From assembly GCA_020356025.1 (NCBI GenBank), contig CP070630.1, positions 1,729,027 to 1,793,026 on the forward strand: a stretch of DNA of 64,000 nt. Direction: 5' to 3'. This DNA comes from Dehalococcoidia bacterium (GTDB lineage: Bacteria > Chloroflexota > Dehalococcoidia > SM23-28-2). The notes under the pieces were generated by a model. That model searched no databases. It was not told where the DNA came from and saw nothing but the letters and a program-made list of their open reading frames with translations. The stretch's first letter is position 1. Every line of letters starts with the position of its first letter. Below, one piece after another: positions 9,656 to 45,112 of the stretch. The translations under genes and the position numbers were made by a program.

Positions 9656-10501
9656 TTACCGCACTCCGTACCCGGCCTCGACCGCTGCAACGTCCATGGC
9701 CACGGTCAGCACACGTTCCGCCGCCAGCAATCGCTTTCCGGCAACCTGCCGTAGGTCGATCGTCTTGAGGTAGCGGCGGCACTGCTCGCAGACGTTGAGG
9801 CGATACACCTGATCCTCGCTGGCGTAGTAGGCCAGTTGCTGCGGATCGTCATTGCCGCAGAACGGGCAGCCCACTCGCCGGAACGCCCACTCGCTGTCGC
9901 AGCGCGAGCAGAGGAGTCGCCGCCGCCCGCTCTCTTGTTCCAGGGCGGCCACGTCCGGCTCGCCGCCGCAGATCGGACAGTGGCCGCGATACCACACGCT
10001 CTCGTCGACCCAGGGAGTGAGCGCCTGCGCCTGAACTCGCAAGAAGGGACGCAGGGCGTTGATGAAAACGAAGGTGAGGAGATAGGCGTCGAGCCCCGCT
10101 TCCTCTCCCTCGCGGACCCGACCCTCTCGCAGGTACTCCGCAGCGACGGCCCCGATCCGGTCTCGTCTCTCGTCCAGCCAGCCACGAACCCCGGCCAAGG
10201 CCTCGGCCAACTCCGGCCTGCGCTCAGCCACGATGTGTCCTATCTGGTCAAAGAGTTCAGCCAGAGCCTGGTCGTCCGCCACGAGATGCTCCGGCGCAAG
10301 CAAAGGATACCCTTGCTGAAGCCGCTCGGCGGCCTCCTCGCTGCTCAGAGCCAGCCGACCGGCCGGGACCTGAGCGTGGGCTTGGGCCTCGAGCAGTTCG
10401 CAGTGCAGTTCGATAGTGTCAGCTAACCCGGCCCGCTTGCCAGCCTGGCTGTGTAGCTCTTGCAGGATCTCGGCGTAACCAACCACTACAGCCCCCCACA
10501 A
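9656..10501 (-). CDS. fdhE: Formate dehydrogenase accessory protein FdhE
   Basis: Paired CxxC motifs WYRGHCPICGGEPD...LLCSRCDSEW...VGCPFCGN...NVCEQCRRYLK typical of FdhE. Confidence 0.8.
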   Translation of the reverse strand: MWGAVVVGYAEILQELHSQAGKRAGLADTIELHCELLEAQAHAQVPAGRLALSSEEAAERLQQGYPLLAPEHLVADDQALAELFDQIGHIVAERRPELAEALAGVRGWLDERRDRIGAVAAEYLREGRVREGEEAGLDAYLLTFVFINALRPFLRVQAQALTPWVDESVWYRGHCPICGGEPDVAALEQESGRRRLLCSRCDSEWAFRRVGCPFCGNDDPQQLAYYASEDQVYRLNVCEQCRRYLKTIDLRQVAGKRLLAAERVLTVAMDVAAVEAGYGVR

Positions 10502-10555: not shown

Positions 10556-11704
10556 CTACTCCGCAGCCGAACCAGCGACCTGCTCCGTGAACAGGGGCAG
10601 ATAGCGCGCCACCAGGCCAAAGGCGGCGACGCCGGCAGCGATCATGCCGATGGTCACGGCGAATTCCAGCGGGTGCGGCACGTACGAGGCGGCGAACTCC
10701 GGCCTGCCTATGGCGATCAGGCTCACCGCAAACCGGCTGAGGATCACCCCGCTGATGACCAGCAGCGCGCTGAACAACAGCCCGACGCTGCTTTGCCTTA
10801 CCGCCGGCAGTGAGAACAGCACCATGGGCAGGAGCACGAAGCCCATGATCTCCAGCCACCACAGACCGCTCTCCAAATTCCATTCTGTCAGCAGGCTCAA
10901 CTCCCCCGAGCCAGCGAGATCCCCGATCTTGACCGCGATGTAGGCAGCCAAGACAAACGGGATCACCTTGGCCAGACCACCAAGAAGGTCTAGCTCCAAC
11001 CCTCGCCGGAACACCCTCGAACTGATAGTAGACTCCAGAATCACCATAGCCGGCCCCACCGCTACCGCCGTTAACCAGAACATCAGCGGCAACAATGGCG
11101 TGTGCCAGATCTTATCCAGTTGGTCAGGCAGGATGACATACAGCGAACCCAGGGAAGACTGATGCAGGGTGGACAGCGTCGCCCCCGCGATGGCAAGCGG
11201 GATGATCAGCGCATGGATGAGACGGCGCGGCGCTTCCATCCCAAAGCGCTCGAACACCATTGGGCTGAACTCCAGGGCCAGCACGGCGGTGTACAGCATT
11301 ACGCACCACCCTACCTCAAACATGACCGAGTGGTGGTTCCAGAAGATTATGAGATACCAGATGCGCTCTGGACGGCCCAGGTCAACTAGAAGGGCCAGGA
11401 TCACCAGCAGGTAGCCCAGGAAACCCGTGAGAATGGCCGGCCGAAGCAGGGGACGATACCGCTCCCCGCCAAAAAGGTAGACCATCGACGCCGTGACGAA
11501 GGCGCCGGCCGCCAACGCCACGCCGCACAGCAGGTCGAAGGTGATCCACAGCCCCCAGCCATAGTTGTCGTTCAGGTTGCTGATGGCCCCCAAGCCGCTT
11601 ACGTAGCGGATCATCGCCACCACGACCCCAAGGACGATCAGGCCCCCCAGCACGACGACAGCGGGTGAAATGGGAGGACGACGGAGCGCGTTTCCTCCAA
11701 TCAT
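10556..11704 (-). CDS. NrfD/PsrC-family integral membrane subunit (quinone-interacting anchor of the formate dehydrogenase)
   Basis: About 10 TM helices. N-terminus VSGLGAISNLNDNYGWGLWITFDLLCGVALAAG resembles NrfD/PsrC. Overlaps fdhB by 4 nt. Confidence 0.7.
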   Translation of the reverse strand: MIGGNALRRPPISPAVVVLGGLIVLGVVVAMIRYVSGLGAISNLNDNYGWGLWITFDLLCGVALAAGAFVTASMVYLFGGERYRPLLRPAILTGFLGYLLVILALLVDLGRPERIWYLIIFWNHHSVMFEVGWCVMLYTAVLALEFSPMVFERFGMEAPRRLIHALIIPLAIAGATLSTLHQSSLGSLYVILPDQLDKIWHTPLLPLMFWLTAVAVGPAMVILESTISSRVFRRGLELDLLGGLAKVIPFVLAAYIAVKIGDLAGSGELSLLTEWNLESGLWWLEIMGFVLLPMVLFSLPAVRQSSVGLLFSALLVISGVILSRFAVSLIAIGRPEFAASYVPHPLEFAVTIGMIAAGVAAFGLVARYLPLFTEQVAGSAAE

Positions 11705-20993: not shown

Positions 20994-21647
20994 ATGAAGG
21001 TTAAATGGTTGGGACACGCTTGCTTTCTCCTCACCTCCGACAGCGGACTCAGGATCATAACCGACCCCTACACCCCCGGCGCCTTCGGGTTAGAGTACGC
21101 ACCCCCAGCGGAGACGGCCGACATCGTCACAGTGAGCCACGACCACGCTGACCACAATAACGTGGCCGCTGTGAAAGGCAATCCTCAGGTTGTGCAGGGA
21201 GTCGGCAGCCACGAAGCCAAGGGCGTCCGGTTCAAAGGCATCGCCGCCGCCCACGACGAGTCGTCGGGGAAAGACCGGGGAGCGAATACGATATTCTGCT
21301 TCGCCCTGGACGGCATCAACATCTGCCACCTGGGCGACCTGGGCCACGACCTGTCAGATCAGACAGTGACCGACATCGGCGATGTCGATGTCTTGCTGAT
21401 CCCGGTAGGAGGCAACTTCACCATAGACGCCCCCGTCGCCAACGGCATCTGCAAGAAGCTCGCACCGAATCTGATCATCCCTATGCACTTCAAGAACGCC
21501 AGGTGCCCAAGCTTCCCCGTCGCTGGAGTGGAGGACTTCACCCGAGAGCGCCAGCAGGTAACAACCAGCGCCGGCAGCGAGATAGAGGTCAAGAAGGAGC
21601 AACTCCCCTCCGGCGCGGAGACGATAGTCCTGAAGCCAGCGCTCTAG
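20994..21647 (+). CDS. MBL-fold metallo-hydrolase
   Basis: MKVKWLGHACFLL...VSHDHADH metal-binding motif. GAAAGGAGG SD 7 nt upstream. Confidence 0.8.
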   Translation: MKVKWLGHACFLLTSDSGLRIITDPYTPGAFGLEYAPPAETADIVTVSHDHADHNNVAAVKGNPQVVQGVGSHEAKGVRFKGIAAAHDESSGKDRGANTIFCFALDGINICHLGDLGHDLSDQTVTDIGDVDVLLIPVGGNFTIDAPVANGICKKLAPNLIIPMHFKNARCPSFPVAGVEDFTRERQQVTTSAGSEIEVKKEQLPSGAETIVLKPAL

Positions 21648-24016
21648 GCCAGGACCTTGGTGGCCTCGGCTAGGTTCATGCGGTTGCTGTGCCAGATAGA
21701 GGGTATGGTTGACACCAGGGCAGCCACGATAATCACAACGGCGATCATCGCGTAGGTTGTCGTGCGCATGTGGAACCACATAGTGAAGAACTCGGAACTC
21801 CACGTGTGGATCAGGTAGGACGCCGCGATCGTCCCCAGAGCGAGGCCGGGCAGGATCGCCAGCAGGCTGAAGGTCAGGCCTTCCGTCGCCAGCATGAGAA
21901 CAACCGACGGCCTGCCTGCTCCCAGCGTGCGCATGGTCGCTGTCTCCCGCTCCCGCTCCAGCACGTTGACCGTCATCGTGTTGAACACGATCGCGCCCGC
22001 CATCACCATACAGAACGCCACGATGACCCCAGCCATCACGTTGAACAGGGCCATCTGCTCTCTCCAGTCGTCCCGAATGTCCTCCTTGACCTGCACCCCC
22101 TGAATCCCCGGCAAGCGATAGAGCGCCGCCTGCACTTCAGCGTCGGCGGAGGGAGAGGTCGTTTCCAGCCACACGGCATTGAAGCCGTCCCCTAGGCCCA
22201 GTTCGTCCTTCGTCGCCAGCGACACGTAGCCCAGCCCGCCGGTGAACTCCCTGCTAACGCCGCTCACCACCAAAGATGAGATGCCCACCTCTGTTGCTAT
22301 GTCGAGGCTATCGCCGACGCCAACGTCCAGTTGGTCGGCAACCCCCAGGGTCAGGATGATTCCTCCCTCACCCAGAGCCTCGCCCGTCGTCTTCCCGCCG
22401 CCCAGGTCGAATCCGTGCAGCCGCGTGTCCTCTTCCACCGCCATCAACTCGATGTTCGTCCGCTTCGAATCCACCCGCAACTCCGCCGGCGTCAGGTAAA
22501 GGCGCTCGGCCTCGCGGACACCCGTCAGACCGTTGATCTCGGCCAATGTCTGGTCATCCTGAGGGCTCCAGAAAGCCGCCGCCACGTCCCACCTGTCCGT
22601 CTTCTCGAACTGGCGGTCCATGATGAAGTCCATGCTATCGAATGAGGACAGCCCCACGACCAGCAAGATCGCCGCCAGCGCGATAGCGCCCACCGTATAC
22701 AGGCTGCGCATCGGCGCCCGCCAGATGTTGCGTACTCCCAGCCGCACCAGCAGCGGCGGCCGCCGTCCCAGGCCGAATATCCGCTCGACGAAGGGCACCG
22801 AGCCCTTGGCGAGCGCCACCTCCGGCGATGGACGCATCGCCGGCGCCGGCAGCATGCGGCTGGCCGCCCAGGCTGGCGCCGCCGCGGCCACCAACGCCAC
22901 CGCCAGGCTCACTATCACGCTGATCACGATCGGCATAAGCTGAAACTCGTGGGCGATGAGAGGGATCGCGAGCGCGTCGGCGTACAGGCCCGTGAGAAGA
23001 TAGCCTAGCCCGTACCCCGCCGCAGCGCCGACGCTGCCACCCACTACCCCAACCACCACGGCGAACAGAAGATAGTGCACCACGATGGAACCCTTGCCGT
23101 AGCCAACACCCCTGAACAGCCCGATGAGCGTTCTCTGCGCCCGCACCAGGCGGCTCATGGCGATGTAGATAGCGAAGGCTGCGATGACCAGCACCAGAGT
23201 GGGGAGCAAAACGGCAAACTCGCGGCCGCTCTCAAGGTCAAGCTCGGTGGTGGCCTTGCTCGGCTGGTCCTCCTGCCGCACCGTCTGCTGCACACCGTAC
23301 GGCTCCAGCAACCCGGTCACAGCAGCAATGGTGTCCTCGCGCTCGCTTTCGCTCTCCACCAGCACGTTGACCTCATTGACCTGCCCCTGCATCCCGAACA
23401 GCTCCTGCAGGTAAGCGTTCGGCACGAAGAACACTCCGAAGCGGCGCGGGCTGGGCAGCAGGTCCTGCTTGCTCTCCGCCATCAGCAGGTACTCGGGACT
23501 GGAGACCGTCCCGACGATAGTCAGCGGCTTTAGACCCTCAAGCGTGTAGACCTGAAGAGTGTCGCCGCTCTCGTACCCGTGGAAATCGGCAAATTTGCCC
23601 AGCGGCAGCACGACCGCCCTCTCATCCACCTCGAAGTAGCGCCCGGACTCGACGATGACGTCGTTGACCGCCGCCCGCCGATCCGCCGGAAGGCCGATGA
23701 GCCGAGCCTGCACCAGCCGATTCTCGTCCACCGGCAGCCCGGTATCCATCACCACCCGACCTTCCACCGCCTTCACGTTCGCCAGCTCGCGCACCTCGTC
23801 CACCGCCGACTCCGGCGCCTGTGCGACCTCCACGCTGAAGTCGGCGAAGTGGGTTGCCTCGTAGGTGCGATCGTACGAGCGCTCTGCGTTGGTGAACGCC
23901 ACCGTCATCGATACGAAGATGGCGATGCCCAGCGCGATGATGATGGCCAGCGCCCCGAACTGGAAGCGCCGAGCCATTATGTCCCGAATCACCAGCAGGT
24001 GGATCTTGCGGTTCAT
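21644..24016 (-). CDS. ABC exporter permease with two FtsX domains (MacB/DevC-like)
   Basis: 790 aa. Two 4-TM FtsX-like modules separated by large periplasmic domains. Overlaps the upstream ATPase gene region. Confidence 0.8.
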   Translation of the reverse strand: MNRKIHLLVIRDIMARRFQFGALAIIIALGIAIFVSMTVAFTNAERSYDRTYEATHFADFSVEVAQAPESAVDEVRELANVKAVEGRVVMDTGLPVDENRLVQARLIGLPADRRAAVNDVIVESGRYFEVDERAVVLPLGKFADFHGYESGDTLQVYTLEGLKPLTIVGTVSSPEYLLMAESKQDLLPSPRRFGVFFVPNAYLQELFGMQGQVNEVNVLVESESEREDTIAAVTGLLEPYGVQQTVRQEDQPSKATTELDLESGREFAVLLPTLVLVIAAFAIYIAMSRLVRAQRTLIGLFRGVGYGKGSIVVHYLLFAVVVGVVGGSVGAAAGYGLGYLLTGLYADALAIPLIAHEFQLMPIVISVIVSLAVALVAAAAPAWAASRMLPAPAMRPSPEVALAKGSVPFVERIFGLGRRPPLLVRLGVRNIWRAPMRSLYTVGAIALAAILLVVGLSSFDSMDFIMDRQFEKTDRWDVAAAFWSPQDDQTLAEINGLTGVREAERLYLTPAELRVDSKRTNIELMAVEEDTRLHGFDLGGGKTTGEALGEGGIILTLGVADQLDVGVGDSLDIATEVGISSLVVSGVSREFTGGLGYVSLATKDELGLGDGFNAVWLETTSPSADAEVQAALYRLPGIQGVQVKEDIRDDWREQMALFNVMAGVIVAFCMVMAGAIVFNTMTVNVLERERETATMRTLGAGRPSVVLMLATEGLTFSLLAILPGLALGTIAASYLIHTWSSEFFTMWFHMRTTTYAMIAVVIIVAALVSTIPSIWHSNRMNLAEATKVLA

Positions 24017-24046
24017 CGTCTCAGGTTGCCTCTGCCAGCCTTCTCC

Positions 24047-24823
<777 letters not shown>

Positions 24824-25042
24824 CCCTCCCCCAAAGCAAAGGCTACCTTGTGACGAGGCCCTGCTGCAAGGAGCGAGGCAAAGGAGAAGACGTGTACTGT
24901 GCTGAAGCCCGGGGACAGGCCGCAGACGGCGCCCGATATCGCTCGGCCGCGACCAATATTCACTCGCTTCTAACCTTTGTGCTCCTGGTTTTCACTGATC
25001 CCCGGCCTTCTTCCGGCGATAATATCTCCAACGGAGGCGGAA

Positions 25043-25477
25043 GTGCCGCTACGCAAGAGCAACGAGTCGAGCGATCACCTCGAGGATGAGGACCTCACGG
25101 ACGAGCTGGTCGAATGGGCCAACGCCAGAAGAGCGTCTGTCTCCGAGACCACGCCAGGCAGGATGGGGTCTCCTGAAGGGGCGGAGTTTGAGCCGGACCT
25201 CTATCCGTCCGACTCAGAGAGCATGCTCAGCGGAGCTGAGACCGCTGCGCTGATCAAGTCCAACCAGCAACCTAAGGTCTTGGTAATAGCTCTTAACGAG
25301 ATCACTGCTGACCGGGCCCAGGCCTACTTGTTCGATGACACCCAAGAAGCGAGCCAGTTCATCGAAACCCTCGTGGAAACCGGCCTCGATCCGGACCGCA
25401 TCATCGTCTTCTGCGGGACGCCGATGAACTTCCAGGTGAGCCACCGCCTCGAGGTCACCGTCGACGAACCCGAGTAG
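25043..25477 (+). CDS. Hypothetical protein, paralog A of a 3-member family (acidic N-terminal tail plus conserved ~70-aa C-terminal domain)
   Basis: GGAGG SD then GTG start (VPLRKSNESSD..). C-terminal KVLVIALNEITADRAQAYLFDDTQEASQFIETLVETGLDPDRIIVFCGTPMNFQVSHRLEV aligns with paralogs B and C. ORF open from 24977. Confidence 0.5.
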   Translation: MPLRKSNESSDHLEDEDLTDELVEWANARRASVSETTPGRMGSPEGAEFEPDLYPSDSESMLSGAETAALIKSNQQPKVLVIALNEITADRAQAYLFDDTQEASQFIETLVETGLDPDRIIVFCGTPMNFQVSHRLEVTVDEPE

Positions 25478-25593
25478 CAGCCGACGGTATCCAGTTAGCG
25501 GCCCCAGCCAGAGGCGCTGTACCGCCATCTCACGCCGTCGCCCCCCACGAGCCACACGATGGCCTCGGCCAGCAGGAGGACGGCCGGACGCAC

Positions 25594-26003
25594 TCAGTCG
25601 GCGGTCTCTGCCCCCCCCGGCGGGTCCAGATTCACTTCGACGCGATAGGCAACGTTGAGGCGCATCTCTTTTCCAAGGAAGACATGGAGGTGGCTAGGTT
25701 CCATCCCGTCCTCGACGGCGCCTCTGACGAACTCCCCCGCATCCTCGATCCTATCGAAGGCATAGGCTTCGCCGTGCCCGTCTGTCGCCCCGCGGTCAGC
25801 CACGACGATTATCTTCGTCCCGGCTTTTGGCTGCGCTGCATAGGCGATGCCTTTCGCTGCGCCACCCGCAGTGCCCGCGCCGTGCGGGTCCGTTTGCTCC
25901 TCACCAGCCTCGTCATCGCCAGGCTCAGCCGTCACTGTGGCCGGAGCATGCTCCGGCTCGTCGCCGACGTCCTCTTCACCTTTGCGAAAGAGTTTGGGCA
26001 CCC
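25594..26003 (-). CDS. Hypothetical protein, paralog C of the same family
   Basis: GTG start VPKLFRKGEEDVGDEPE.. preceded by GGGGGTGG. C-terminal TKIIVVADRGATDGHGEAYAFDRIEDAGEFVRGAVEDGMEPSHLHVFLGKEMRLNVAYRVEV. ORF open to 26124. Confidence 0.5.
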
Positions 26004-26212
26004 GTGACCACCCCCTATCTTGCCGATGGAGGAAATGCCTCTCTTCTAATACATGGACGCGGCCAGGCTGCTTTTGTAACAAACGTGCCACGCCTGCCCG
26101 TCTATTCCAGAGCCACGCCGCCACCCGCCAGTCACTTTATGTTACGAATGGCAGGTCAGCAGCGTCTAGATAGGTGCGACCCGCACAGGCCGGACGACGA
26201 AGATGGGGGTGA

Positions 26213-26623
26213 ATGAAGGTGCCAAAGGATCATGGGAAGAACGGCGGCTCCGCAGACGTGGATGAGACCAACAACCTGACGACCCACATGTTGGATTGGG
26301 CAAAAGAGAAGATGGCGGCGGGAACGGCTGAGCCTCCCAACGAGGAGCAACCTGCGACAAAGACTGAGCGGCAACAGACGGGCTCGGTAATCGTCGTGGC
26401 TGTCTGCAGCGACGAGTCGAACCAGGCGGAGGCCCAGCTCTTTGAAGATGAGGCTGACGCCAAGCGATTTGTGGAAACCTTAGTGGAAGGCAACGTAGAC
26501 CAGGAACGCATCGCCGTCCTGCGAGGGAAGGCCGTTGAAATGAACGTGACTTATCGCCCAGTGATCCAGCTAGGTGTGGACGGCGAACCGCAAGCAAGCA
26601 GCGATCAAGACCAGCAGCCTTAG
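26213..26623 (+). CDS. Hypothetical protein, paralog B of the same family
   Basis: MKVPKDHGKNGGSADVDE.. preceded by GGGGGTGAATGA. C-terminal GSVIVVAVCSDESNQAEAQLFEDEADAKRFVETLVEGNVDQERIAVLRGKAVEMNVTYRPVI. Confidence 0.5.
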   Translation: MKVPKDHGKNGGSADVDETNNLTTHMLDWAKEKMAAGTAEPPNEEQPATKTERQQTGSVIVVAVCSDESNQAEAQLFEDEADAKRFVETLVEGNVDQERIAVLRGKAVEMNVTYRPVIQLGVDGEPQASSDQDQQP

Positions 26624-26630
26624 CTCACCC

Positions 26631-26675
26631 TCCGCCCACCCTGAGCCTGTCGAAGGGGCTCGTCGAAGGGCTGTC
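26631..26675. repeat. Dispersed GC-rich mini-repeat copy 1 (CCGCCCACCCTGAGCCTGTCGAAGGGG...GTCGAAGGG)
   Basis: Shares the core CC(C/T)TGAGC(C/T)TG(T/C)CGAAGGG(C/G)(C/T)TGTCGAAGGGG with copies at 27314, 45065 and 52738. Confidence 0.7.
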
Positions 26676-26741
26676 CCCCAGACCCAACAATTATCGAACG
26701 GCGGCTGGCTGGGACCAATTCCCTGAATCGAAGGACCGCGT

Positions 26742-27029
26742 TTATCGCGCCACCGCCACTTCGTCCTTCTCGGACTCGCCCTCCTCGGAGGCCGCTGGCA
26801 TCCCCAGGCCACGCTGGTTCATCTCGGCCAGCTTCGCCTCAATCTCGATGACCTCCTTAAGGTTGGCTCTCTGTCGCTCGACCAGCTCGATCTTGGCTTG
26901 GACGTACTCGCGCTGCGCTATCAGACTGGAGTGCTCGCTGTCCAATCCCTCCAGATAGTCTTTTAGCACGTCCGACGATCGCTGAGAGCGCCGCTTGCCA
27001 CCTTCACGCGCTGTGGATTGGCTTTGCAT
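26742..27029 (-). CDS. Small predicted coiled-coil protein (about 95 aa), unknown function
   Basis: MQSQSTAREGGKRRSQRSSDVLKDYLEGLDSEHSSLIAQREYVQAKIELVERQRANLKEVIEIEAKLAEMNQRG... is heptad-like and charged. ORF open to 27194. Confidence 0.35.
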   Translation of the reverse strand: MQSQSTAREGGKRRSQRSSDVLKDYLEGLDSEHSSLIAQREYVQAKIELVERQRANLKEVIEIEAKLAEMNQRGLGMPAASEEGESEKDEVAVAR

Positions 27030-27313
27030 AGCTGCCCTCCTCGTCTTCGCAGGTCTTGCGAAGAACCCGAGCTTGCTAACCACCTCCATGATCCCCCATT
27101 GGAAGCAGGCGCAGACCGAGGCACCGCCCCGCTCCCGTCGGGAGAGCGCAGATCCCCATGATGGTCGATGAGCCCTTGCCACCTTCTTGACCACCAGACC
27201 CGTCTCGCTTATGTCGAAGAGCCTGGTGCACTGATTCTACTCGCAGTCGCAAGGGTTGGCAAGGGATGAAGGCAATCGGTGCCGCTACGCTCAGCCCGGG
27301 AGCAGCCTCCAGC

Positions 27314-27380
27314 CGCTCATCCTGAGCCTGTCCTGAACTTGCCGAAGGGCTTGTCGAAGGGCCTGTCGAAGGGGTCTGAG
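27314..27380. repeat. Dispersed GC-rich mini-repeat copy 2 (tandemised core)
   Basis: CCGCTCATCCTGAGCCTGTCCTGAACTTGCCGAAGGGCTTGTCGAAGGGCCTGTCGAAGGGG. Confidence 0.7.
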
Positions 27381-45073: not shown

Positions 45074-45112
45074 CCCTCCGCCCACCCTGAGCTTGCCGAA
45101 GGGCCTGTCGAA
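45065..45112. repeat. Dispersed GC-rich mini-repeat copy 3
   Basis: CTCCGCCCACCCTGAGCTTGCCGAAGGGCCTGTCGAAGGGGCTTGCTCC lies between convergent gene ends. Confidence 0.7.

Follow-up and report, generated by a model that had tools for sequence, protein, structure and literature searches.

A small domain, a flexible linker, and a terminal docking peptide make up the ClpX adaptor SspB, the single-strand binding protein SSB, FtsZ—with its C-terminal linker and peptide—and the archaeal and eukaryotic ribosomal stalk P-proteins. The cargo of encapsulins and bacterial microcompartments consists of a domain, a disordered linker, and a short terminal loading peptide or amphipathic encapsulation helix. 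Terminal peptides may also serve as membrane-targeting helices, as in MinD, FtsA, or SepF, and the known helices of this type tolerate sequence drift. For proteins that bind the β sliding clamp (DnaN), the consensus is QL[S/D]LF or QxxLF, whose first two positions—Gln and an aliphatic residue—are important for binding; some DnaE3 polymerases retain only xxxLF (PMC12309361; bioRxiv 10.64898/2026.05.27.728225).

Here, we describe three small genes—A, B, and C—within a stretch of 64,000 nucleotides of a Dehalococcoidia bacterium (hereafter the window). Their products combine a small α/β module with an acidic linker and short conserved peptides. Table 1 lists the features of the locus.

Table 1. 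Features of the A–B–C locus; positions refer to the window
Feature	Position	Strand	Remarks
Duplicated FtsX-type permease	21644..24016	-	790 aa; orthologs carry MacB_PCD + FtsX twice
ABC ATPase (MacB/LolD/FtsE-like)	24047..24823	-	Divergent from A
Paralog A	25043..25477	+	144 aa; GTG start; Shine-Dalgarno GGAGG 25034-25038
A helix motif, residues 18-30, LTDELVEWANARR	25094..25132	+	L-T-x-x-Φ-L-[DE]-W-A-[RK]-x-[KR]
A C-terminal α/β module, residues 78-141	25274..25465	+	β-β-α-β, then conserved segment NFQVSHRLEVTV
A-B convergent spacer	25478..25593		Non-coding; 94-98% identical among orthologous loci
Paralog B	25594..26001	-	135 aa; GTG start 26001; NCBI JSU97_08245
B C-terminal module, residues 63-126	25624..25815	-	
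B N-terminal conserved peptide MPKLFRKGEEDVGDEPEHAP	25942..26001	-	Stands in place of the LTxxΦLxWA helix
B/C divergent intergenic region	26002..26218		Gene-flanking parts conserved 76-93%, middle variable (~40%)
Paralog C	26213..26623	+	136 aa from ATG 26213, or more likely 134 aa from GTG 26219
C helix motif, residues 22-33, LTTHMLDWAKEK	26276..26311	+	Same motif as A
C C-terminal module, residues 58-120	26384..26572	+	
Dispersed mini-repeat copy CCTGAGCCTGTCGAAGGG	26640..26657	+	Further copies 27332-27349, 45086-45103
Charged coiled-coil protein	26742..27029	-	95 aa; convergent with C; dN/dS 0.14-0.49

The trio of paralogs and its genomic setting

All three proteins are short (~135–144 aa), very acidic (pI 4.15–4.5), and devoid of a signal peptide or transmembrane segment. 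Pairwise BLASTP identifies them as true paralogs: A and B share 36% identity over 66 aa (E = 4e-16), B and C share 34% over 62 aa (E = 4e-9), and the A/C pair lies in between (E = 6e-14). The three paralogous small ORFs of the original prediction—which had been made from the letters of this DNA alone—hence all exist, with E-values far past chance. Likeness at the DNA level is limited to short inverted repeats of 20–26 nt (I1–I3), in line with the earlier claim that the proteins are conserved and the DNA has diverged. Orthologs of each gene are found at 50–100% identity; A is 100% identical to the NCBI entry [quoted passage not shown], and C has a 134-aa relative (P0023) at 99% identity. A, B, and C fall into three separate deep clades that each include orthologs and further, more remote relatives, and the modules of B and C are under purifying selection (dN/dS 0.16–0.34). 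This agrees with the proposal of three old, distinct copies rather than a recent duplication, and A, B, and C are best explained as anciently diverged, separately maintained, and independently transcribed paralogs.

Paralog A is the fastest evolving of the three. Its module shows a dN/dS of ~1 or higher—indicating relaxed or diversifying evolution—and the gene displays low synonymous divergence. An antisense ORF (25214–25555) was considered as a cause of the latter and rejected: differences are spread evenly over the codon positions, indel lengths in the spacer are not divisible by three, and one locus (L015) carries a ~130-nt insertion in the A–B spacer. A itself stops at a TAG, and longer orthologs continue to "…EPEQQPTLSS". 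The gene limits first assigned to the trio stand for A and shift slightly for the other two, as B starts at GTG 26001 rather than 26003 and C most likely at GTG 26219 rather than 26213. For C, this start is favored because a Shine-Dalgarno sequence (GGGGGTG, 26205–26211) lies 7 nt upstream of it and because the L004 ortholog offers no other start. Taking C from GTG 26219, all three genes would therefore share a GTG-CCN start (M-P-K/L).

Between the genes, a scan of the A–B spacer found no terminator consensus, and its predicted RNA structure is unremarkable (z = +0.5 and +0.8, covariation absent). A promoter scan of the B/C intergenic region found no σ70-type consensus, and Rfam detected no RNA families within 20–30 kb. 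The dispersed mini-repeat is real, with three copies in the window against 0.14 expected by chance; its supposed position on either side of the trio does not hold, as the local copies (26640 and 27332) enclose the coiled-coil gene instead.

The "MacB exporter" that had been noted upstream (21644–24823) is indeed present. It is, however, not a single gene but a permease and an ATPase, and it is transcribed divergently from A rather than in the same direction. On the other side, the coiled-coil gene lies on the minus strand and faces C. Within related contigs, the flanking synteny of the trio is stable over at least 10 kb. Beyond these closely related syntenic genomes, the co-localization is not kept: the ABC/FtsX pair is missing beside fourth-group genes, beside other clustered or solitary relatives with a C-terminal module, and in 35/35 loci of the wide type described below. 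The coiled-coil gene is likewise absent from single-copy relatives, other clustered relatives, and the 35 wide-type loci; it occurs only in trio-clade loci, and its similarity is that of a generic coiled-coil. On these grounds, the trio as an accessory or substrate of a MacB/FtsX-type ABC system is not supported, and the coiled-coil protein as its partner was rejected. The suggested functional link to either neighbor thus reduces to a co-occurrence confined to one clade in which the whole neighborhood is syntenic, and the best explanation assumes no mechanistic link between the trio and the exporter next to it.

Module, linker, and terminal peptides of a wide family

Each trio protein carries a ~65-aa α/β module at its C terminus, preceded by a 40–60-aa acidic disordered linker and short conserved peptides at the N terminus. 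For A, AlphaFold predicts a helix at residues 17–33, disorder at residues 33–72, and a confident β-β-α-β core. The pLDDT below 50 within the disordered stretch, together with the low pI of the proteins, bears out the acidic low-complexity tails of the original prediction. A model of the A module only reaches a mean pLDDT of 80, and the last conserved module segment, V-T-Y-R-P-V-V, stays at 60–66, where its placement is not confident. The B module retains a D-R-G-x-x-D-x-H-G-E hairpin loop typical of the wide family.

That the module matches no named family was rightly anticipated. Pfam at E ≤ 1 returned nothing for A and B and only sub-threshold DUF5812 and DUF3964 for C (15 bits against cut-offs of 25–27), NCBIfam gave noise only for all three, and Pfam, NCBIfam, and PADLOC together provided no family for the trio or for wide-type members. 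The STAS, DUF2007, PII-like, and KaiB-like domains were rejected as candidates, with neither a significant profile match in Pfam or NCBIfam nor a fold similarity to solved members. Literature searches on the motifs or on a comparable family in Dehalococcoidia brought up no relevant work. The sole library profile to align with the whole module is phrog_14961 (PHROGs v4, 62 aa): residues 75–136 of A align to its positions 1–60 at E = 5.6e-4 (21 bits) and B matches at E = 0.068, both marginal, with no match for C and wide-type members. This profile carries no assigned function, so the likeness explains nothing. Foldseek retrieved many uncharacterized phage proteins of 50–90 aa with a similar small α/β unit (TM ~0.5–0.64), a fold similarity that is marginal as well (best E = 6.8e-4).

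A profile of 62 relatives with an N-terminal module (A4), from which the trio sequences were excluded, recognizes all three paralogs (C, 6e-19; A, 3e-15; B, 3e-12), and every other ORF of the 64-kb window scores at E > 3. The family counts 264 representatives at a cut-off of E ≤ 1e-3 and no fewer than 880 clusters. All genome loci (35/35) belong to Chloroflexota MAGs, with dispersed copies and often several per genome—a taxonomic range to be read as a lower bound, as the genome scan ran with a narrower alignment. Judged by these profile matches, A, B, and C are best explained as members of an undescribed small-protein family that appears restricted to Chloroflexota. "New" here is meant as an undescribed family with no detectable relatives; a new mechanism is not demonstrated.

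Most family members reverse the order of the trio: the module is N-terminal and is followed by the acidic linker and a conserved C-terminal peptide. The module had hence been described correctly as a conserved C-terminal unit, and the far larger mirror-image family with its C-terminal peptide had been missed. This peptide reads A-[TA]-P-[FY]-x-x-[DN]-G-V-R-F-S-S-L-F-R-[PS]-A, with G, V, R, F, S, L, F, and R near-invariant. Exactly three residues past "LF", 152/172 proteins end. Within the F-S-S-L-F pentapeptide, the respective residues occur in 164, 172, 134, 115, and 168 of the 172 proteins. The N-terminal peptide of B follows the pattern MPKLFxKGExDVGDExEHAP, whose [KS]-L-F-R core resembles the S-S-L-F-R of the wide-family C terminus. 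A and C bear an amphipathic helix motif, LTxxΦL[DE]WA[KR], with L, T, W, and A invariant; it is present in 22/23 A, 27/27 C, and 6/6 fourth-group proteins and in 0/28 B proteins, and it is doubled in tandem in P0093, P0100, and P0101. In some family members, the last residues are "MPELLH" in place of the LF-type peptide, and in two proteins (P0198 and P0231) a transmembrane helix and an extracytoplasmic Excalibur domain replace the terminal peptide. Altogether, four or more peptide types and two mirror-image orientations are seen in the family.

Paralog clusters occur in three arrangements: the +/-/+ trio, a same-strand pair (L052 and L057), and a pair of convergent genes that includes a 64-aa mini-module (L055). 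At all 35 wide-type loci, the gene stands alone. Neighborhoods vary between the paralog subgroups and point to no single hub.

Candidate functions

The architecture suggests that A, B, and C might be cytoplasmic adaptor or scaffold proteins acting through tethered peptides, a reading of the trio and its family that we derive from sequence features and to which we assign a probability of roughly 40%. The terminal peptide would dock on a conserved partner—a putative hub—, the module would provide a second interaction or assembly surface, and the acidic linker would serve as flexible tether. In the trio, related modules with different docking peptides and separate promoters might occupy the same partner or partners competitively or combinatorially. 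The shared module, the different peptides, and the recurrent clustering are compatible with the partner-switching or multi-paralog regulatory set that had been considered from the start, and the Excalibur/transmembrane variants fit a role of the terminal end as an anchoring or localizing element. A dN/dS of ~1 or higher in the A module, on the other hand, would rarely be expected of a strictly conserved interaction surface and speaks against an adaptor. The neighborhoods that differ between subgroups and the uncertain placement of V-T-Y-R-P-V-V in the model count against it as well.

A rival reading makes the proteins binders of a replisome or repair hub, the β sliding clamp. The C-terminal "…R-F-S-S-L-F-R-x-x-COOH", and possibly the "MP[KS]LF" of B, would then be non-canonical clamp motifs on flexible acidic tethers; the family would modulate traffic on DnaN, and A and C would use a different peptide for another replisome partner. 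The S-L-F of the family coincides with positions 3–5 of the clamp consensus, so that S/D at position 3 and L-F at positions 4 and 5 are shared with known clamp-binding proteins, and it sits three residues from the C terminus, an extreme location like that of the PolC motif. However, Gln at position 1 and the aliphatic residue at position 2 are not found; F (164/172) and S (172/172) take their places, and some 10 further flanking residues are conserved although canonical clamp-binding motifs need none. An AddB-like PD-(D/E)XK nuclease and a UvrD-type helicase are encoded within ~1.5 kb in ~8–13 loci, dnaN in 4–5 loci, and a PcrA/UvrD-type helicase in 2 loci, and holA adjoins a fourth-group gene; such replication/repair neighbors come from several independent syntenic groups, an apparent enrichment. 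The largest remaining syntenic group, by contrast, has purely metabolic neighbors, as does the trio. Moreover, A and C lack an LF-type motif, B has only the L-F of M-P-[KS]-L-F, and the "MPELLH" ending does not conform either. We therefore give clamp binding an outside chance. Alternatively, MPKLFRKG… and …RFSSLFRSA might be amphipathic membrane-targeting sequences of the MinD/FtsA/SepF type that hold the module at the membrane by a long linker, perhaps, at this locus, in the service of the neighboring FtsX-type ABC system. Phe and Leu are indeed mixed with Arg and Lys at the extreme termini, P0198 and P0231 place a transmembrane helix and an extracytoplasmic domain where the peptide would be, and A and the ABC ATPase gene have a conserved divergent promoter region in common within the trio clade. 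Yet at least nine peptide positions, G, S, and S among them, hardly vary, which sets them apart from drift-tolerant targeting helices; the N side of the A/C helix is acidic within a strongly acidic tail—unfavorable for anionic membranes—, the "MPELLH" variant lacks basic character, and the ABC/FtsX adjacency is absent outside one syntenic clade. The chance of a membrane tether thus appears slim.

By analogy, the layout of the family also matches that of compartment cargo, and its strictly conserved peptides might guide the modules into an encapsulin or a bacterial microcompartment. This is very unlikely, since no shell-protein family is among the 25 commonest Pfam families of 130 neighboring proteins, the called genes of trio-type loci include no shell protein, and a module of 65 aa hardly looks like an enzymatic cargo. 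The original prediction had further offered a toxin/immunity-like module, and an anti-phage defense function or mobile-element cargo may be added to this group. The genes are small, lineage-specific, and unannotated, and the weak full-length match to phrog_14961 as well as the marginal phage-protein folds point in the same direction. Against it, PADLOC assigns 0 families to A, B, C, the coiled-coil protein, and two wide-type members, and Pfam and NCBIfam hold no matching toxin-antitoxin family; tblastn found no match in 50,697 phage records and a single insignificant one (E = 0.5) in 72,556 plasmid records. The three genes alternate in strand and are monocistronic instead of forming a co-transcribed pair, the synteny among metabolic genes is stable with no integrase or transposase nearby, and the wide-type relatives are solitary throughout. 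We regard this group of functions as extremely unlikely and the earlier suggestion as not supported.

A more detailed version of the tethered-peptide adaptor can be drawn, which we put forward as speculative and improbable in its full form. The trio might be the clustered tip of a Chloroflexota-specific system that combines the α/β module, in either orientation, with interchangeable peptides. The S-L-F-R type—found in the wide family and, in a degenerate N-terminal form, in B—would bind the β sliding clamp or another replisome/repair hub via a non-canonical motif, and the LTxxΦLxWA type of A and C would bind a second partner. Neighboring paralogs would constitute a competitive or partner-switching set that tunes hub access, and antisense cross-regulation between A and B would have left its trace in their unusually conserved spacer and in the synonymous sites of A.

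Significance and comparison with known systems

Subsurface and marine habitats harbor Dehalococcoidia and their relatives in abundance; most of these bacteria are uncultured, and much of their proteome lacks annotation. Three anonymous ORFs become members of a family with at least 880 clusters and several copies per genome, which follows a modular grammar: an acidic tether joins the module to a terminal peptide drawn from a small set of strictly conserved types. In peptides, conservation of this degree almost always marks a specific binding partner; therefore, the terminal peptides of the family—ATPFVKDGVRFSSLFRPA, MPKLFRKGEEDVGDE, and EDEDLTDELVEWANARR—are synthesizable baits of ~12–18 residues for a putative interaction hub in this phylum, possibly one with a link to DNA replication or repair. 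Should the proteins be simple structural or stress proteins, the value would mainly lie in better annotation.

With SspB, SSB, FtsZ, and the stalk P-proteins, the family shares a folded domain, a flexible, low-complexity, often acidic linker of variable length, and a strictly conserved terminal peptide, in the absence of any sequence or fold relationship to them. Unlike these systems, it combines its module with at least four peptide types and does so in two mirror-image orientations.

An undescribed, Chloroflexota-restricted protein family

The neighbouring genes A, B and C encode small, strongly acidic proteins (pI 4.15, 4.50 and 4.43; net charge -20, -16 and -13) that share a C-terminal α/β domain of about 65 residues, here called the module. 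What the original prediction observed holds with minor corrections: all three of its open reading frames exist, but its start of B at 26003 is wrong, as stop codons lie in frame, and the nearby GTG is right. The likelier start of C is GTG 26219 rather than ATG 26213: a GGGGGTG box (26205-26211) lies 7 nt upstream of the former but 1 nt from the latter, the GTG is the sole start in the ortholog of the related locus L004, and the 134-aa database entry P0023 is 99% identical to C. With this start, GTG-CCN (M-P-K/L) opens all three paralogs. A is 100% identical in sequence to the record 'MAG: hypothetical protein JSU97_08240 [Dehalococcoidia bacterium]'.

Coordinates of the trio and of neighbouring features within the window
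Feature	Position	Strand	Remark
Divergent ABC ATPase/A promoter region	24905-25042		
A	25043-25477	+	GTG start; GGAGG at 25034-25038 upstream
A module	25262-25474	+	
Segment of the early A stop	25475-25498		CAG -> TAG in the window clade
A-B convergent spacer	25478-25593		
B	25594-26001	-	in-frame GTG at 26001
C	26213-26623	+	alternative, likelier start GTG 26219
Mini-repeat, copy 1	26640-26657		CCTGAGCCTGTCGAAGGG
Mini-repeat, copy 2	27332-27349		CCTGAGCCTGTCGAAGGG
Mini-repeat, copy 3	45086-45103		CCTGAGCCTGTCGAAGGG

The predicted paralogy holds for every pair in pairwise BLASTP—A versus B (36% identity, 66 aa, E = 4e-16), A versus C (E = 6e-14) and B versus C (34% identity, 62 aa, E = 4e-9)—while similarity at the DNA level is confined to stretches of 20-26 nt, which appear as inverted repeats since B lies on the opposite strand. 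A word-indexed search retrieved 20 relatives of A, and an alignment-based search 89 proteins, which split cleanly into A-, B- and C-orthologs (50-100% identity to the respective window copy), with a fourth group about equidistant from A and C. In a neighbour-joining tree of the module—indicative only, with 82 columns and without support values—A, B and C each fall into a deep clade of their own that also holds distant relatives of other lineages; hence, the duplications are old.

A module profile run exhaustively (HMMER) against 1.84 billion representatives yielded 264 proteins at E <= 1e-3, of which 137 reach E <= 1e-10. Most of them mirror the layout of the trio: the module occupies residues 3-72, and an acidic P/A/E/T/G-rich tail comes after it. 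They are referred to as the wide family. An alignment of such wide-type proteins retrieved no fewer than 880 clusters (90% identity), virtually all annotated as 'hypothetical' and assigned to Dehalococcoidia wherever an organism is named. A wide-family profile built without the trio recovers C (6e-19), A (3e-15) and B (3e-12) and has no further match within the window. Scanning one genome for each species gave 35 loci, all in Chloroflexota MAGs and up to five in a single MAG, a range that is a lower bound given the narrow search patterns. The trio are members of a large, undescribed, Chloroflexota-restricted family, and this is what the feature represents, not a demonstrated new mechanism.

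The original prediction rightly called the family unrecognisable and under selection. Profile and fold searches gave no named family. Pfam (E <= 1) holds no match for A or B and two sub-threshold DUF matches for C; the NCBIfam scan of the trio proteins returned noise only, and neither PADLOC nor Rfam, the latter run on the region, gave a match. The module profile reached E = 1 at best against all PDB sequences, and Foldseek E = 0.4 against the PDB. A Foldseek search of viral structures (BFVD) gave marginal matches (best E = 6.8e-4, TM ~0.6) to many uncharacterised phage proteins of 50-90 aa, and phrog_14961 (PHROGs; no assigned function) is weakly matched full-length by A (E = 5.6e-4) and B (0.068). 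By tblastn, 50,697 phage records gave no match and 72,556 plasmid records one insignificant match only. The IF3 N-domain, which has the β-β-α-β-β order in common with the module, was rejected at an hhalign probability of 0.5%.

Selection was assessed by Nei-Gojobori estimates over five orthologous loci. The dN/dS values are 0.19-0.30 for the B module (comparisons with the window copy), 0.16-0.34 for the C module, 0.14-0.49 for the coiled-coil gene that follows the trio and 0.3-1 for the acidic tails. The trio genes are thus selected, look expressed and are not frame artefacts of GC-rich DNA (the G+C content of the window is 59-68%); the module of A is an exception in its dN/dS.

Modular build and terminal peptides

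An AlphaFold2 model of full-length A, calculated from a 15-sequence alignment, shows a helix at 17-33, a stretch with pLDDT <50 at 33-72, and a confident core of strands 78-84, 92-97 and 120-125 and helix 100-112. The same β-β-α-β order appears when the module alone is modelled from 40 diverse sequences (mean pLDDT 80; ~88-94 for residues 20-50); there the last segment, which is highly conserved ('NVTYRPVV' in C), reaches only 60-66.

Wide-type chains end in A-[TA]-P-[FY]-[VTM]-[KRQ]-[DN]-G-V-R-F-S-S-L-F-R-[PS]-A, with G, V, R, F, S, L, F and R near-invariant over 172 proteins, 152 of which terminate exactly three residues past 'LF'. A small subset of the family ends in '…MPELLH' instead, and two rare relatives, P0198 (288 aa) and P0231 (240 aa), lack the usual peptide and carry, behind the N-terminal module, a predicted transmembrane helix with an Excalibur calcium-binding domain at the C-terminus (Pfam E = 1.1e-5 for P0198).

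In the subtype with a C-terminal module, to which the trio belongs, there is an N-terminal helix motif, L-T-x-x-Φ-L-[DE]-W-A-[RK]-x-[KR] with invariant L, T, W and A. It is found in 22/23 A, 27/27 C and 6/6 fourth-group proteins, twice in the relatives P0093, P0100 and P0101, and in none of 28 B proteins. B has a conserved N-terminus of its own, 'MPKLFxKGExDVGDExEHAP', and a conserved 'AKRTAHA' directly before the module; its module has likewise retained the D-R-G-x-x-D-x-H-G-E hairpin loop typical of the wide family, whose His is lost in A and C. Hence, the trio combines one module type with differing peptides.

Genomic surroundings and the paralog A region

The order FtsX permease (-), ABC ATPase (-), A (+), B (-), C (+), 95-aa coiled-coil (-) is found again in contigs from metagenomes and MAGs, among them Dehalococcoidia bacterium DG_22. 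The same contigs conserve the wider surroundings (amidase, GMC oxidoreductase, metallo-β-lactamase-fold protein, NMO and HpaB), so that this order reflects synteny among relatives and is not independent evidence of a functional link. The functional suggestions that the original prediction drew from the neighbourhood are not supported, as the ABC/FtsX and coiled-coil adjacency is restricted to one syntenic clade; the coiled-coil gene occurs only in loci of the trio clade. Neither a conserved link between the trio and the ABC/FtsX system nor any signature of mobile elements or defence is present. The divergent promoter region is 80-96% identical among orthologous loci, which equals the conservation of coding DNA. 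The mini-repeat, which reads 'PEPVEG' if translated, has three copies in the window against 0.14 expected by chance; the two copies predicted to flank the trio are real but bracket the coiled-coil gene. Downstream of the latter the content varies among related contigs: the window encodes a 421-aa PQQ/BamB-like repeat protein, L004 encodes a 776-aa protein, and L001 has neither of the two.

Distinct paralogs with a C-terminal module adjoin each other in three arrangements: the +/-/+ trio, a same-strand pair and a convergent pair. The same-strand tandem pair has members from two other deep clades (L052/L053 and L057; L052 2671-3772, L057 10001-11068). In L052 and L057, two lineages, it is flanked by methionine-synthase-like genes and a radical-SAM gene; its first member (201-223 aa) carries the LTxxVLDWA helix motif twice, its second (127-129 aa) a basic C-terminal tail. 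In L055, a distant A-like gene (10001-10447) converges on a 64-aa stand-alone mini-module (10800-10994; '…FVVIVVYGPDD…AEQHMTRLLEHGVPEANIRVY…') without tail or terminal peptide. Outside the trio clade, fourth-group genes are single, upstream of a CAP-domain gene in L011 and L012 and next to holA (DNA polymerase III δ) in L014, and the distant A-like P0092 has thiolase on one side and Fe-repressor/FeoB genes on the other. Wide-type genes occur singly in 35/35 loci, which fall into several syntenic groups. One group is divergent from an AddB-like PD-(D/E)XK nuclease (8 loci) and a UvrD-type helicase (13 loci), another sits between genes for an OmpR-type regulator and DUF3090, ~1.3 kb from dnaN (5 loci), a third has enoyl-CoA hydratase upstream and metabolic genes around (7-9 loci), and a fourth is near a PcrA/UvrD-type helicase (2 loci). 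By raw count, replication/repair genes recur near wide-type and fourth-group members, at L026-L029 and L035; L017, L019-L025, L033 and L036; and L014.

The A module departs from its neighbours at synonymous sites. Only 1-2 of ~49 are changed; in the same genome pairs, B, C and the coiled-coil gene differ at 36-44 of 165-168 (Fisher p = 0.0016, 0.0045 and 8e-5). Non-synonymous divergence is normal to high (dN ~0.10), and differences are flat over codon positions. The resulting dN/dS of ~1-4.6 does not exceed 1 significantly (binomial p = 0.10-0.18), but is significantly above that of B and C (p = 0.004). The adjoining A-B spacer has 94-98% identity among loci that share 84-93% in their coding DNA. 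Part of this conservation stems from truncation of A: a CAG-to-TAG change ends A early in the window's clade, with the downstream codons still intact in the window, and longer orthologs continue for ~10 residues ('…EPEQQPTLSS'). The remaining spacer is non-coding, given indels that are not multiples of three and a ~130-nt insertion in L015 (region 9839-10160), also present in L016. A scan of the spacer for a terminator consensus found none, and neither RNA-structure signal (z = +0.5 and +0.8) nor covariation was detected. Together, spacer and synonymous deficit suggest either a nucleotide-level constraint, as convergent transcripts that overlap might impose, or a local recombination tract after which the protein changed fast; diversifying selection is a further candidate cause of the A module pattern.

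Possible roles of the tethered peptides

Ancient paralogs, a three-part modular build, discrete and strictly conserved terminal peptides and repeated paralog clustering characterize this family. Residue-specific conservation of short terminal peptides on long disordered tethers is typical of docking motifs, by which a protein is recruited to a partner. Hence, we read the family proteins as possible cytoplasmic tethered-peptide adaptors or scaffolds, a mechanism to which we give a probability of roughly 40%. The trio would then be a set of related modules with different peptides, each under a separate promoter.

The most specific rival is binding of the β sliding clamp. In the published clamp motif QL[S/D]LF/QxxLF, position-1 Gln and an aliphatic position 2 are important for binding (PMC12309361, bioRxiv 10.64898/2026.05.27.728225). 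The S-L-F of the wide family corresponds to positions 3-5, and several subgroups have dnaN, holA or helicase-nuclease genes as neighbours; however, the wide family has neither this Gln nor the aliphatic residue, A and C have another motif, and the trio as well as one large subgroup have metabolic neighbours only. Anchoring at the membrane by the terminal peptides finds some support in the relatives with a predicted transmembrane helix and in the basic-hydrophobic character of peptides, yet agrees poorly with peptides so strictly conserved in sequence and with an A/C helix that is acidic. Readings as toxin-antitoxin, defence or compartment-cargo proteins have little or no support. As cytoplasmic adaptors or scaffolds, the family proteins might be likened to SspB, SSB, FtsZ and the ribosomal stalk proteins by their tethered docking peptide.
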